64,000 bases of DNA from an uncultured candidate division WWE3 bacterium (GTDB lineage Bacteria > Patescibacteriota > WWE3 > UBA101185 > UBA10185): positions 346,880 to 410,879 of the forward strand of contig CAIRNR010000007.1 of NCBI GenBank assembly GCA_903879985.1, in the 5' to 3' direction. The position numbers are program-made. Shown here one piece after another: positions 12,001 to 30,000 of this stretch. How positions within the stretch are numbered: the first letter of the stretch is position 1; the number at the start of each line of letters is the position of its first letter.

Positions 12001-15000
12001 AATGATTGCAGTTCTCACTTCTTTCACGGTATAGAGCCATAAACTATAGGTTGCTTTAATTTCCTTTTTAAGCTATAATAACAGCATAAATGTCAGCAAA
12101 CCGCGTAATATCTGCGGATATAATCTCTTGATCTGGAGGAAAAAATGAATACGAGTGATTGGTTGCATTCTTTTGAAACTGCAAAGTTGCAAAAATCAAT
12201 TGACGCCGCGGTGGCATATTTGATGGGGTCACCAGAAGTGGTAAAAGTTATTTCCCCGAAAGGAATGATTTTTGCCTACAAATCTGAAGAAAATCCCAAC
12301 CTCTGGATTGTTTCCTCGATGGAACCTCACAACGAAGCAGCTTGTGGGTTCGACGCTGACGGGAGCGATCCAAAAAGATACGGACTTTCAGGAACCATAT
12401 CCCGCGGCAACAAGGATACCTGGAGGACGAATGAGAAAATTCACACAAAATACATGGTGGATTTTCTTTTAAACAGCTCTCAGACTCCTCCTGAGCTTCG
12501 AGCCGCCATACATAACGTTACGGAGGGGCTGAACCAAATTCTTAAACTGCATTAAGTCTTTCTTTAAAAAGGGACAAACAGCAAAATAAAATTACTGCTT
12601 GTCCCCTAACTTAAGTCTATTTAACCAAAGTAGGTTTAAGTTAGCTATATTAATCGCACAAATTATGCGAATCAATCCAAAATATGAGGAGAGAAAAATG
12701 GAAAACGATAATGAAAATGCGGCTGTAGCAAACTATATGATTGGCTTGTTTACAGGATTTTTCATGGGAATGTTGGGCGTTACGCTTCCTAATTTATTAA
12801 CAGCTATTACACGGAACAAATTTGATTTAAATATCTTAATAATAGTAATAGTACTAACGGCCCTTTCTAGTGGAATGCTAATTTTTGGGAAACGCCTGAT
12901 TGCCGCCATCTGCAAGTAAAATCAAAACCATACACAAGAAGGAAGTGGCAAATGAAAAAAGCTTTAGTTGGATTTGTAGTATTTGACGTCCTGGTTCTTC
13001 TAAGCATGTTTGGCCTGATCTTCGTGCCTGCAGTATCCCAATATGCCGATCAGATGAAAGAAGAAAATCTGACAGCTGGATATTGCATCTCGCACTTCGA
13101 TCAGCACGACCAGCATATAGACAAAATCGTGGGCTGGGTAAATAACAAAATCGACGGGCTCGCAATGAGGTATGTATATAACAATTGGTCCATACACATG
13201 CCCGGAGATTTCCCGACTACCGAATTTCCCTATCAAGATTCTGATTTTGTATTATGTCTCAAACGGTAAGGAGTTCATGTACGCACAAACCCCAATCGAC
13301 AAAAATCGCTTGGGGTTCTTTTTTTCTTAAAAAACTGATAATAAACCTCGAATAAAGTTCTGTATGGGGAGCCATAACTGGCACAGGCTATAGGTTGACT
13401 GTTCTGACACTTACGCATATAATCCTCATAATCACTATTCATAAACCATTCTTTTTCCCAGATTAGGAGAGATTTACATGAACAATCGCAAAGTCAAACT
13501 GGTTATTATCCTTTTATCTATCCTGAGTCTTTTACTTCTAGGCTACATAGCTTATAGAATTTCACAGGAAAATATAAAGGTTACAACCAAAACCTTGGCT
13601 TCAAACCCTAGTTTGTACTTTAGCTGGGATGTTGAAACCGAAGGTATCGCCGAACCCTCAGGAACAGTAAGAGAAACAAAACTCTGTCCAACCGGGAGAG
13701 GCGCAGTGCTAATGACAGCAGAATACAGGTGGTACACGCTCAAGGGTGAAGACGGAGTAAAGTTCCTTGTTGTAGACGCAATAAATGATTGTGGCCTACC
13801 TACTGCGAATGAAATCCCAACCGGAATACCCATACGAGTGCAGGGGCAGGTGTGGAACGGGGAACCTCCCTACATCCGAGTTTTTACAACTGAGATAATT
13901 AAGTAAACCTAGATTGGAGGAACAATGTTAAGTAAATTAGATATTTCCGCAGGAGAGTTGCTTGTTGGTTTAGCAACGATATCAAATTTTCTGGTTTTTA
14001 TTCTGTCCGGAGTAAAAGATTATTCAAAAGTACATGTTGGCATCATGCTTTTCGTGAACATAGGAATGATCGTTTTGGGTATTATATGGATGCGCAAAGA
14101 CAAAGCGAGCATTTACTGGATACTTGCAGCATTAGGTTTAGTCTTCGCTATACCCAATCTGCTTTATTGCTTTTAACGTAAAGGCAACAAGCAAAACCCC
14201 AACCGACAAAAATCGTTTGGGGTTCTTTTTTATGAAAAAACTCTACCTTCAAGTGCTTCCCAGATCCAAAAATTATTGGCAGGAAACCTGTACCCTATAG
14301 TTTGACTTGAGGTGTGTTTTACTTTATAATCACGCCACAGTCATTAATCAATCGCAAACAATTTGTTGCGAATTATATCCAAATCAAGGAGACAGAAATG
14401 AATAAAATAATAGTACGTGAAATCCATGAAGAAAGCCCGGAAAAGAGCTCGTTATACGCGACTATGGGCACACTTCTCAGCCTTGTGATAGTTGCAGGCG
14501 TTGCTTACTGCGTGTGGTTCCTCATTGGAAAAATTTTGCCGATTTTGGCAATTTTGTACCTGGTTATCATCGCCATCGTGGAACTCAAAAACCTGTTTAC
14601 TGGGTGGAAATACGTACCAGCAGTCCCGGCCTCACTGAAAAGCGTGATTGATAACGGGGTAGAAAAAGCAACGGCGGTAGCCAAAGAAAATGATATCGAA
14701 ACCGATGAAACTACCACCAAAGGATACGCGGTATTACTGTGGGGGGTTATGCTCATCACAATACTGGTGATGCTGGCTCACTACACAATTACCGGTATAT
14801 TGTTCATCACCTTTGGCAGCAGCCATATCGGATACATCGGATATTTAGGCTTCGCCCTGGTGATCTGGAACTTTCTACGCGTCATATTCATGACAAGGAA
14901 GGTTTTCTACGTGTTTAAGCACGCAGATCAGACTCCAGAAGACAAAGGTCCAGTGAGCTATTGGATTTGGAATATGGTATCCAAACTGCGCAGCACACTT

Positions 15001-27000: not shown

Positions 27001-30000
27001 TTGCTGACATTGCAGGTTATCGACAATGCAAAAATGCAAGACGACGTAGCCGTTATATTGGCAAACAGTGCACGACGTAGTATGCGTAAAATTGTGGGCG
27101 ATCTCTTTGTGTTCGTTAGCAAAAATGGCGCCTCAACGATGATCCCCGGCGGCGAATCTGGAAGACAAGCTGCAAGTAAGCTTGGAAAAAGCCTCGTTGT
27201 GCTGAGCGTTAACCCAACGGATAAGGACGCTTTTTACACCTTCAGGGAAAATAGCGATTCTTACGGGCCAACTTTACGAAAAGTCGTGCAACTTCTCTCG
27301 ACATCAGCACACCCAGATATCCAAAAAATAATCCGGGTCTTAAATCTGCTGGAAAATCACGCGTACTATATGGGTATCACCGGCTAATCTCAAATGGGAC
27401 AAGCAGCAAATTTAAATTACTGCTTGCCCCCTAACTCAAATCCATTTTTTTGAAAGTAGACTTAAGTTAGGTAATATATACAAAATGAAAAAAGGAGAAC
27501 AAAGATGACCCATAAACAAGGAGGAAAAATAACTTCCTCGCATACAACAGTTACAGAACTTTCAGGAGAAGTTGTTGGCTTTCTTGAAAAATGCGAAACT
27601 GTTTCAAAAATTTCAATCGGGGTTTTAATTAACTCAGCTGAAGCGAGCGGTTCTATTTGGACTGTAAAAATAATCGACGAACAAAATTGTGTGCTTGTAA
27701 AAACAACTCAAAAAAGTACAAATCAGGAACTTAGATTTTATACAAATTCTCCTGAAGCTCGCCAAAACGCGAAACTAGAGTTATCCGAGTTTGTACGAAA
27801 CAAACGCTGGAAACTGCGCTTTGGATCACACATAAACATAACCTAAACCTTGTACCGCCCAACATACGTACGAGGTTTTTTTTCTAAACAAAAAGACCTA
27901 TAAGTGATACCATTTATACATGGCAAATATCTTCGAAAAAAATAAAAAAATCATATTAGCTTTTGTAACACTTATATTATTAACATTGAGCGGGTTATAC
28001 ATGAAATATACTTGGGATACGAGTATAAAAACCACTTCTGATCAAGCATTGACCACAGGTAGAATAGCAGCGGCAACACTTTCAGAGGATGCTCTAAACC
28101 AACTTACTATAGAATCTTCAGACACAGATAAAAAGGAATATCAATATATTAAATCCAGCTTAATGGCTATTAAAAACATAAATACCAAAATTCGTTTTGC
28201 ATACATCTATGCACAAAGAGCAGGTAAAATATATTTTGCCGCCGATTCTGAATCTGTAAGTTCTTCCGATTACTCACCACCAGGACAAGAATATCCCGAA
28301 GCAGATGCTGAGGACGTACTACCTTTTACAACAAGACAAGCTATTGTTACAAAACCTGCAGCAGATCGCTGGGGAACATGGGTAAGCGTATTAGTACCTA
28401 TAGAGGATCCTACAACAAATAAGGTTATCGGCGTTTTCGGTTTAGACTACCCCGCAAGTGATTGGAACGATGTAGCTGTTGCAAGTACAGCGCAAGCTGG
28501 GGTAATAGCCTTCGGCTTTATTGGATTACTTTTTGCTTTTTACAGAGTATCTACCAGCAACATGCAAACAATAGAAAACGAAAGAAACTACAGAACATTT
28601 TTTGAATCGATTGACGATAGTATCATTGTGGCCAGTAAAGATGGAAAAATACTTTACACAAATAGTTCCTTAACTAAGAAACTCGGCTATTCGGAAAAAG
28701 AGATTAAACAAATGCATGTTTTAGAACTAAATCCAAAGAATAAAAGAAAAGAAGCCGAGCGAATATTTGGCGACATGTTAACAGGTAAAACAAAAACATG
28801 TCCTTTACCCTTGGAAAGAAAAGACGGATCTTTGATACCTGCTGAAACACAAGTATGGTTTGGAAAGTGGAATGGTCAAAATTGTGTGTTTGCCGTATCA
28901 AAAGATTTGGGCGAAGAGCAGGAGCTATTAGAAAAGTTTAATAAAATATTTAATAATAATCCGTCGTTAATGGCAATCAGTTCGTTACCTGACCAAAAGT
29001 TTACAGACGTAAACGAAGCATTCCTAACAAAAATCGGTTATGCAAAAGACGAAGTCATTGGTAAGACATCCCACGATCTACATCTTTTTATGAATGAGAG
29101 CGAACAAAAAAATGTGTCAGAGGAATTGAAAAATAGAGGAAATATCCACGATATCCCTCTACAAATAAAAACAAAAACAGGAGCAATTATTGAAGGCTTG
29201 TTCTCCGGCGAAATCATTGAAAATCAAGGGAAATCTTACTTTTTAACAGTAATGATTGATCAAACCGAAAGTAAACATGCCCAAGAAGAAATGGAAAAAA
29301 TGAACGAGGAGCTAAGATCTGTAAACAAGCTGATGGTCGACCGGGAAATGAAAATGGTGGAATTGAAAAAAGAGTTGGAAAAATGCAGAGGAACTGCGTC
29401 AGTATCGACTATAGGTTGACAGAAACATAGGGTTAAGCTAATATCTTCACAATCAAAATAAATATGGATGGAGGATTGTATGTTAAACGACGAAGAAACA
29501 TTAGACTCTTTTGTGCAAACAAAACGCCCAGGTTCCACGTGGAAACCAGAAAGATTAATTAACTGGCAGGAATCAAAAAGAAATACTGGGGTATTCCCAA
29601 ACATTGACCACACTGAACCAAACCCTGAACTCGATGGAAGCGTGCGGCAGTGGTTCAAAACCTCGTTTGCAAAACTTTGGTATCTGGAAATTCGCATGGA
29701 AGATACCAACGAACTAATGGCCCGGTATCTTTGGTTTGCCAACGAATAAACCAACACCGGCGATAAAGTTAGAACAAACCCTCTACGTAAAACAAACGAA
29801 GAGGGTTATTTTTTACAACGGCGTGATAATATTTATATATGTCCAAACAAACTAAAAAACCAGACAAAATGCCCGCAATTATGTTGGCAGGATTATTCTT
29901 TAGTATAGTAAGTGTTACAGGTTTGGTAGTTTTAAAAACCTATCTTCAGGGAAAACCCAACATTCCAATTAAACCGGACGCAACAATAATTAACCAAAAA

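Follow-up and report, generated by a model that had tools for sequence, protein, structure and literature searches.

Three times within 15 kb, a double hairpin of about 80 bases stands between small genes in a 64,000-nucleotide stretch of the genome of an uncultured candidate division WWE3 bacterium (GenBank assembly GCA_903879985.1, contig CAIRNR010000007.1, positions 346,880 to 410,879; hereafter the window), and the question that this locus raises is what so stereotyped an element does there. All three copies are intergenic and lie on the plus strand. An initial annotation had placed each of them between a stop codon and the start of a downstream gene (at 12698, 15243 and 27505) and had proposed RNA stability or attenuator elements, repetitive extragenic palindrome (REP)-like repeats or small-RNA genes; the sequence, the repeat families and a covariance model (R1) put the copies in the same places, the flanking stop and start codons are as described, and the copies belong to a true repeat family. 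In the reading favoured here, to which a probability of about 0.4 is assigned, the element would be a lineage-specific, cis-acting intercistronic RNA module that uncouples the gene upstream of it (gene A) from the gene or genes downstream (genes B). The DNA of the element may have spread by duplication or recombination.

Three further copies were found outside the window when additional members of the family were looked for. The collection searches, which covered species-representative genomes and metagenome contigs, used a strict 28-nt two-arm pattern, and the family is probably under-counted. Among 185,579 species representatives the pattern had one match, in a metagenome-assembled genome of Ca. 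Saccharibacteria (L001), and in the JGI metagenomes it also had one match (L002), a contig that holds two copies (L002a and L002b) in series 610 bp apart. The L002 region was also recovered from another sample, the same metagenome as the window genome (L012), where its tetranucleotide correlation with the window is 0.99; L002 and L012 come either from a very close relative or from an island specific to a strain. A covariance model was built from the six copies (A2 and R1), and R1, when used to scan the 64 kb, recovered the three window copies (Table 1) and no other match above 16 bits, minus-strand echoes of the same palindromes aside. A de novo repeat search grouped the window copies as families D5 and D19, and the 15-mer CCTAACTTAAGTCTA recurs exactly at 12605 and 15117 on the plus strand and at 27457 on the minus strand. 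Four other assemblies are identical to the window across copy 3 and add no variation; the organism is present in JGI samples 3300022555 and Ga0114951 and among the ENA BUCK21 assemblies. No element was found in 80 kb from four syntenic loci of relatives (35-58% protein identity) or in the 9 kb past the right end of the window, which are covered by a contig 100% identical to the window that extends it on that side (L013), and a homologue search with the gene between the two L002 copies returned only that gene itself.

From 5' to 3' the element consists of an A-rich lead-in, hairpin 1 (H1) and hairpin 2 (H2), the second abutting the first without a linker. H1 is an 11-bp stem with an A/T-rich loop of 11-13 nt. 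Its arms in copies 1 and 3 are GGGACAAaCAG and CTGcTTGTCCC, in keeping with the consensus first proposed (gggacaaRcag); that consensus fails for copy 2, in which GAGGCAAtCAG and CTGcTTGCCTC (GAGGCAATCAG...CTGCTTGCCTC) embody two compensatory pair changes. The AU-rich arms of H2 are CCTAACTYAARTCYATTT ... AAAGTAGRYTTAAGTTAGS, and H2 is indeed a hairpin, as had been annotated, with a stem not of ~14 bp but of 17-19 bp, since the T-run and the AAAG at the edges of its loop pair together. In the predicted fold this stem is uninterrupted, containing mismatches but not bulges, and it is stacked on the 11-bp H1. Copies 1 and 2 are followed at 9-15 nt by another short hairpin (H3; CGCA..TGCG), ahead of the Shine-Dalgarno (SD) sequence and the start codon, and this hairpin is present after the element in five of the six copies.

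Five of the six copies fold far more stably than dinucleotide shuffles, with z scores of -4.8 to -7.0. Copy 3, whose H2 has three A.C mismatches on the plus strand, folds much better on the minus strand (-39.6 versus -23.6 kcal/mol, with z scores of -6.7 and -2.9, respectively). The 3' arm of its H2 complements the 5' arm of copies 1 and 2 at every position, a minus-strand match that arose because of independent transitions on opposite arms. Inversion of H2 in copy 3 was ruled out, as its 5' arm and loop match the subtype of L001 and L002a.

The position of the element is as uniform as its anatomy. The copy-bearing islands of the window (~11.8-16.4 kb and 25.9-31.1 kb) are runs of small plus-strand genes that lack recognizable homologues (ORFans), many of which encode membrane proteins, and the island proteins examined belong to no Pfam, PHROG or PADLOC family. 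All six copies share one layout: an island promoter, gene A, H1, H2, a ribosome-binding site, gene or genes B, and a classical U-tract terminator; in L012 the order is promoter, gene, element, gene, element, genes, terminator. In each case the element occupies the first intercistronic junction or junctions of the operon and is co-oriented with both flanking genes. The neighbouring cassettes at 13478-14176 and 29468-31132 carry no element detectable by R1. In all-against-all BLASTP comparisons of the genes flanking the six copies, no homology was found between element copies; the only pairs, L002 339-800 with window 29468-29749 and L002 1639-1902 with L002 1904-2575, do not link copies of the element. 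A gene-specific leader or a regulator-linked element was ruled out on this ground, and the lack of relatedness among flanking genes suggests that the element is a generic punctuation module. Homologues of gene B3, which were retrieved along with those of the neighbouring DUF1189 gene, form only two clusters, and the orthologue in another contig (L011) has a different upstream gene and no element.

Other regulatory parts of these islands are stereotyped as well. The island promoter, CTATAGKTTGAY-N17-TATAAT with a palindromic upstream motif, occurs at 12044, 13388, 14295, 26878, 29409, 30245 and 35035 on the plus strand, and within the window it is restricted to the front of small plus-strand ORFans in two islands. 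It is also found at 19357, 19837 and 20741 of L007, a relative with 58% protein identity, and at 9474 of L012, and it may mark a dedicated regulon or be an upstream-promoter (UP)-like element of the lineage. Classical terminators of the form AAACCCC..GGGGTTCTTTTTT begin at 13287, 14194, 15934 and 29776; these and a fifth in L002 (Table 1) are mutually homologous, and the genes that they close are unrelated. The first two are 87% identical, and the island spacers are more conserved than the coding sequence. H3 also occurs as a 5' untranslated region (UTR) hairpin ~21 nt past the -10 hexamer of several canonical promoters. The H3 module (TTAAWC-CGCA..TGCG-AAT), which includes two covarying pairs, was located additionally at ~12100-12117 and ~14352-14372 and at ~9527 of L012, and may stabilize the 5' ends of mRNAs.

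The first question about function is whether the element itself ends or starts transcription. It had been described as lacking T-runs after its hairpins and hence as no classic terminator, and both the sequence and a terminator scan agree: the scan flags no window copy, the sequence after H1 is CTAACTTAAG and that after H2 is CTATATTAAT, CAAAATTTAA or GTAATATATA, and no U-tract follows H1 or H2 in any of the six copies. The suggestion of an independent small-RNA gene was not upheld, because there is no conserved promoter upstream of H1 and no terminator after H2. The promoter reported at copy 3 does exist, with its -35 hexamer in the H2 loop and its -10 hexamer just past the H2 3' arm, but it is not a feature of the family. 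The best sigma-70 scores in element-bearing spacers are 7-9 of 12 at inconsistent positions, compared to 9-11 in ordinary island spacers. Only copy 3 and L001 have a site of middling quality (8.5 of 12) at an equivalent position, that of L001 being TTTACA-18 or TTACAA-17-TAATAT. Copies 1, 2, L002a and L002b have no usable sigma-70 promoter there, as the spacers between hexamers would be 19-24 nt. The -35-like hexamer in the H2 loop exists largely because a T-run and an A-run extend the stem. Without a canonical promoter in the spacer, genes B would need read-through from upstream in four of the six cases.

These observations bear on the proposal that H1 and H2 end the transcription of gene A and that a sigma-70 promoter, with its -35 hexamer in the H2 loop and its -10 hexamer just 3' of H2, restarts transcription for genes B. 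The equivalent sites of copy 3 and L001 speak for such a terminator-promoter junction, as does the orthologue of gene B3 in L011, whose ATG is preceded at the same distance by a plain TTGATA-17-TATAAT promoter, and ordinary island spacers hold a terminator followed by a promoter in the same place. The junction is nonetheless unlikely: besides the missing U-tracts and the four copies that lack an acceptable pair of hexamers, none of the copies has the CTATAG motif found upstream of the real promoters of this genome, sites matching at 9 of 12 positions are as frequent in the sequence as in its shuffles (19 found versus 14.8 expected), and the putative -10 hexamers of L001 and copy 1 lie just 4 nt before H3, as opposed to the ~21 nt of canonical promoters.

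The intercistronic RNA module would operate as follows. A polycistronic mRNA from the island promoter of gene A would run through the element, and H1 with the abutting H2 would form a stable, coaxially stacked double hairpin just past the stop codon of gene A. This double hairpin would set the 3' boundary of the gene A message by one of two routes: either the long H2 duplex would be cut as an RNase III-type substrate, after which H1 would block 3'-to-5' exonucleases, or RNA polymerase would pause and partly terminate at a hairpin that has no U-tract. The downstream fragment would begin just before H3, like the primary transcripts of these islands; because H3 follows both elements and canonical promoters, the RNA 3' of H2 would resemble a primary 5' end. 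The net effect would be that the level of gene A is uncoupled from that of genes B. Such a module accounts for the position and orientation of the element, for the lack of a promoter or terminator consensus, for the tolerance of different loop lengths and for the unrelated neighbours. The initial idea of an RNA stability element, an attenuator or a REP-like repeat thus fits with respect to placement, all six copies being co-oriented with the genes and inside operons, and this fit does not separate a stabilizer from an attenuator or from a site in DNA.

Comparison with known systems places the element among intercistronic hairpins without assigning it to a family. Like the REP sequences and bacterial interspersed mosaic elements (BIMEs) of enterobacteria, for example between malE and malF, it is an extragenic imperfect palindrome without a U-tract, repeated in three intergenic copies in the window, and REP/BIME sequences also often lie between co-directional genes of operons, where they stabilize the upstream mRNA segment and lower downstream expression. 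It differs from them in having two different hairpins in a fixed order, an AU-rich H2 of 17-19 bp that is strictly conserved in sequence, and three copies per 64 kb that are all in ORFan islands; moreover, it has no sequence similarity to REP, and no REP-associated tyrosine transposase (RAYT) was found among 30 open reading frames (ORFs) scanned. The RNase III hairpins of phage T7 are likewise related in sequence, repeated within a genome, intercistronic in polycistronic RNA and devoid of a termination consensus, and the stem left after cleavage protects the 3' end of the upstream mRNA. The T7 sites are single composite stems with a characteristic internal loop, whereas the element is chromosomal and its cleavage is putative. 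The put RNAs of phage HK022, which act in cis in antitermination, resemble the element in being ~70 nt long, with two adjacent stem-loops, upstream of genes that end in terminators, but they are located soon after a promoter rather than after a first gene, and they have no sequence similarity to it. Terminators with a weak or absent U-tract, such as the NusA/NusG-dependent terminators of Bacillus, can terminate partially and similarly place a hairpin right after a stop codon with A/U-rich sequence other than a U-tract next; the islands, in contrast, use textbook U-tract terminators at their four classical sites, and H1 has a 13-nt loop followed by a long hairpin. REP/BIME sequences and T7 RNase III hairpins are the closest functional analogues, and membership in a known family is not supported.

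Searches of RNA and mobile element collections gave the same picture. With Rfam 15 at gathering thresholds, only tRNAs were detected in the whole window, and permissive scans of 12500-15300 and of L002 150-1000 returned only sub-threshold chance matches, such as Entero_OriR at 22.9 bits against a cutoff of 80. A known RNA family was ruled out on the basis of these empty results at both gathering and permissive thresholds. No similarity was found in phage and plasmid collections by megablast or blastn. A phage or plasmid origin was also ruled out, there being no nucleotide similarity and no PHROG, Pfam or PADLOC family among the flanking proteins; the window is chromosomal DNA, encoding SufBCD, a NUDIX protein, RpoD, MutL and ten scattered tRNA genes. 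The element family is previously undescribed, though of a familiar kind (REP-like or intercistronic hairpins).

The two hairpins evolve differently. H1 behaves like a structure: compensatory changes have kept its pairing at five of eleven pairs, its two subtypes (GGGAC/GTCCC and GAGGC/GCCTC) are each common to the window and L002, and in L001 its sequence is largely different and cannot be aligned by BLAST, yet it still folds, alongside an H2 that is ~90% identical. In H2 it is the sequence that is kept: none of the twelve arms departs from CTAACT.AA. The initial annotation had stated that a lack of additional copies and of covariation would refute it; neither refutes it, as there are copies in other genomes and H1 covaries, although H2 does not. 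Such strict conservation of H2 implies, as far as sequence can tell, a sequence-specific partner (protein or RNA) or recent spread. Between its 15-nt arms H2 has a loop of 11 to 17 nt, longer by 6 nt in copy 2; this range is of no consequence for a hairpin but would shift half-sites in double-stranded DNA by about half a helical turn, and it is counted in favour of the RNA module. Tandem G.U/U.G pairs in H2 recur on the plus strand in four copies across genomes, and the wobble pairs favour the plus strand in copies 1, 2, L002a and L002b; those of copy 3 favour the minus strand, and in L001 the two strands come out even.

Several observations weigh against the RNA module. None of the 17 pairs of H2 has a compensatory change; four vary on one side (G.U to A-U or G-C) and in two the pairing is lost as A.C, and this conservation of sequence is not by itself explained by a module that acts as a folded RNA. 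Five A.C cells occur in H2 on the plus strand, three of them in copy 3, and for H1 the minus strand often gives the better pairing (A.C on the plus strand in copies 1, 3 and L002b). By distinct variants, G.U pairs number eight on the plus strand and five on the minus strand, so that a strand polarity is not established, and the sample is small (six copies with four distinct H2 variants). RNase III usually acts on substrates of at least 20 bp. Finally, copy 3 and L001 carry a plausible promoter, and the L011 orthologue of gene B3 has a promoter of its own in that place.

The same pattern invites the explanation that H2 is a protein-binding site in DNA, a palindromic operator or roadblock for an island-specific regulator whose binding would govern whether transcription reads through, or starts locally, into genes B, with H1 merely a terminator-like hairpin of gene A. 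Such a site would account for two arms that are conserved in sequence with no compensatory change while the adjacent H1 drifts freely, for the invariance of CTAACT.AA among twelve half-sites, and for the lack of a clear strand bias in wobble pairs versus mismatches. Nevertheless, it appears somewhat unlikely: a rigid dimer would not easily accommodate half-sites whose spacing varies by 5-6 bp (outer span of 41-42 versus 47 bp), and half-sites are usually much shorter than these arms of 15-19 bp. The copies have no regulator gene as a constant neighbour, the flanking genes being unrelated ORFans, and the rest of the window contains no isolated half-site.

Unrelated genes in different contigs or genomes are separated by nearly identical elements (88% over 94 nt), and this raises the possibility of a selfish or neutral mobile repeat, akin to REP sequences or miniature inverted-repeat transposable elements (MITEs), that has no dedicated host function and whose placement reflects tolerated insertions. 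The presence of both H1 subtypes in the window and in L002, the absence of the element from the 80 kb of syntenic relatives, and the clustering of copies in ORFan islands beside a tRNA gene, where a relative has a serine-recombinase element, are all consistent with mobility. A mere mobile repeat is nonetheless improbable, because the uniform orientation and position at the first operon junction in six of six copies suggest selection, and the copy number is low. The element lacks the terminal inverted repeats of a MITE (its ends are AAAGGGAC... and ...GTTAGS), no target-site duplication was seen in its flanks, and no RAYT/IS200-type (Y1_Tnp) or other transposase was detected among the 30 window ORFs scanned against Pfam.

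The base of the H2 stem directs attention to integrons, whose attC sites are also imperfect palindromes right after small unrelated ORFs, with AAC...GTT at the stem base. The (C)CCTAAC...GTTAGG(T) of H2 is near the R''/R' consensus (RYYYAAC...GTTRRRY) and is oriented as an attC site would be behind an ORF; the small ORFs around it are unrelated, and L011 has gene B3 in another context. All this would suit a system of integron-like cassettes, with H2 folded in single-stranded DNA and cleaved by a site-specific recombinase. When the core was examined copy by copy, CCCTAAC...GTTAGGT of copy 3 fit save at position 1, and copies 1 and 2 (GTTAGCT and GTTAGCA) broke the RRR. An attC-like site is very unlikely, since H2 has neither the extrahelical bases nor the central unpaired spacer of attC, elements are absent after some cassettes rather than forming a per-cassette array, and the cassettes have their own promoters and terminators. 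No IntI-type integrase is encoded nearby, and the one tyrosine recombinase gene, at 2853-3728, is Xer-like, conserved and syntenic in relatives. A broader form of the idea, that H2 is a DNA recombination site, folded or duplex, that shuffles small ORFan cassettes in an integron-like system of Saccharibacteria or other bacteria of the candidate phyla radiation (CPR), would explain why conserved spacers with promoter, terminator and element enclose unrelated genes, and why one element subtype can be found beside different genes from genome to genome. Large serine recombinases are indeed found at equivalent loci in relatives, and the H2 base resembles attC core sites, but with no recombinase linked to the element and the structural hallmarks of attC missing, cassette shuffling by H2 is considered highly improbable.

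To our knowledge, gene regulation in Saccharibacteria and other CPR bacteria is almost entirely unknown; most of these bacteria cannot be cultured on their own, and the accessory genes they carry are ORFans. If the junction does set mRNA boundaries or read-through, it would offer a handle for predicting the operon structure and relative expression of the small membrane proteins, of host-interaction type, in the islands, and it would point to a sequence-specific factor that recognizes the 15-bp stem. If it is merely a neutral repeat, it would still be a useful marker of recombination between islands. The stereotyped promoter, the 5'-UTR hairpin, the stereotyped terminator and the double-hairpin junction together make up a reusable set of parts of the lineage.

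Table 1. Coordinates of the element copies and associated features (window positions unless another contig is named; z scores are for plus-strand folds against dinucleotide shuffles).
Feature	Coordinates	Strand	Description
Element copy 1	12568-12646	+	H1 12571-12605, H2 12606-12644; R1 score 96.9 bits; fold -34.3 kcal/mol, z = -6.0
Element copy 2	15082-15164	+	H1 15085-15117 (GAGGCAA subtype), H2 15118-15162; R1 score 84.7 bits; z = -7.0
Element copy 3	27393-27472	+	H1 27396-27429, H2 27430-27471; R1 score 88.3 bits; z = -2.9; no H3
H3 after copy 1	12654-12670	+	TCGCA..TGCGA; generic 5'-UTR hairpin
H3 after copy 2	15178-15195	+	
Promoter-like site at copy 3	27450-27477	+	TTGAAA-16-TAATAT; 9/12 matches; overlaps H2 loop and 3' arm
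Promoter of gene A1	12044-12079	+	CTATAGGTTGCT-N17-TATAAT
Gene A1	12145-12555	+	136-aa ORFan upstream of copy 1; no Pfam, PHROG or PADLOC match
Gene B1	12698-12919	+	73 aa, membrane; downstream of copy 1
Gene B1b	12952-13269	+	Downstream of copy 1
Terminator of operon 1	13287-13333	+	AAACCCC..GGGGTTCTTTTTTT; repeat family D7
Terminator	14194-14240		Classical
Promoter of gene A2	14295-14330	+	CTATAGTTTGACT-N17-TATAAT
Gene A2	14398-15051	+	217-aa membrane ORFan upstream of copy 2; SD before ATG at 14398
Gene B2	15243-15641	+	Downstream of copy 2
Gene B2b	15662-15919	+	Downstream of copy 2
Terminator of operon 2	15934-15980	+	Classical; repeat family D7
Promoter of gene A3	26878-26913	+	CTATAGGTTGATA-N17-TATAAT
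Gene A3	26941-27387	+	146-148-aa ORFan upstream of copy 3
Gene B3	27505-27846	+	113 aa; downstream of copy 3
PAS-domain membrane protein	27920-29419	+	Downstream of copy 3
Terminator	29776-29812		Classical
Terminator in L002	2583-2629 (L002)		Homologous to the window terminators

Partial resemblances to H2 were encountered in two other settings. A transfer-messenger RNA (tmRNA) gene at 2563-2950 of L013, ~6.4-6.8 kb past the right end of the window, contains the H2 core strings ACTTAAGTT and TAGGTTTAAG 33 nt apart; the post-hoc chance of such a match is roughly 0.003-0.005, and the resemblance is probably coincidental. A loose palindrome pattern in viral contigs matched 22 stretches, which were rejected because they scored no more than 25 bits with the covariance model and by eye were mostly in apparent coding regions. 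An unrelated, AT-rich viral contig in IMG/VR (25% G+C) has three intergenic palindromes (L022 7211-7258, L029 1142-1189 and L031 2642-2689); L034 4798-4845 was noted alongside them. This viral palindrome, (GTCA)CCCTAACTTAA-N27-TTAAGTTAGGG(TGAC), has the same outer 11 nt as H2 and no H1; those of L029 and L031 are located between co-directional genes, and the viral proteins have no informative PHROG match. The shared 11 nt reflect either chance or a shared recognition sequence.

Possible signs of integrated elements occur in and around the window. A large serine recombinase gene on the minus strand of L013 (2916-4508) overlaps the 3' end of the tmRNA gene, which indicates an integrated element. 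In L007, the closest relative that was retrieved, a DUF1189 gene is followed by a large serine recombinase and by AAA_25 and SocA_Panacea proteins (11163-17404), whereas at the same position the window has tRNA-Asn and then the first ORFan island, so that the site looks like an integration hotspot. Two 31-nt copies of the 3' part of tRNA-Ser (49364-49394 and 53324-53354; 74% identity) each lie ~150 nt downstream of a tRNA-Ser gene on the minus strand (49517-49607 and 53473-53563, respectively), and may have been left behind by integrated elements or form a conserved downstream structure. On the minus strand at 22875-24722, a 615-aa ORF with no Pfam match and with internal tandem repeats of ~126 nt (families D2-D4) may encode a repetitive surface protein.

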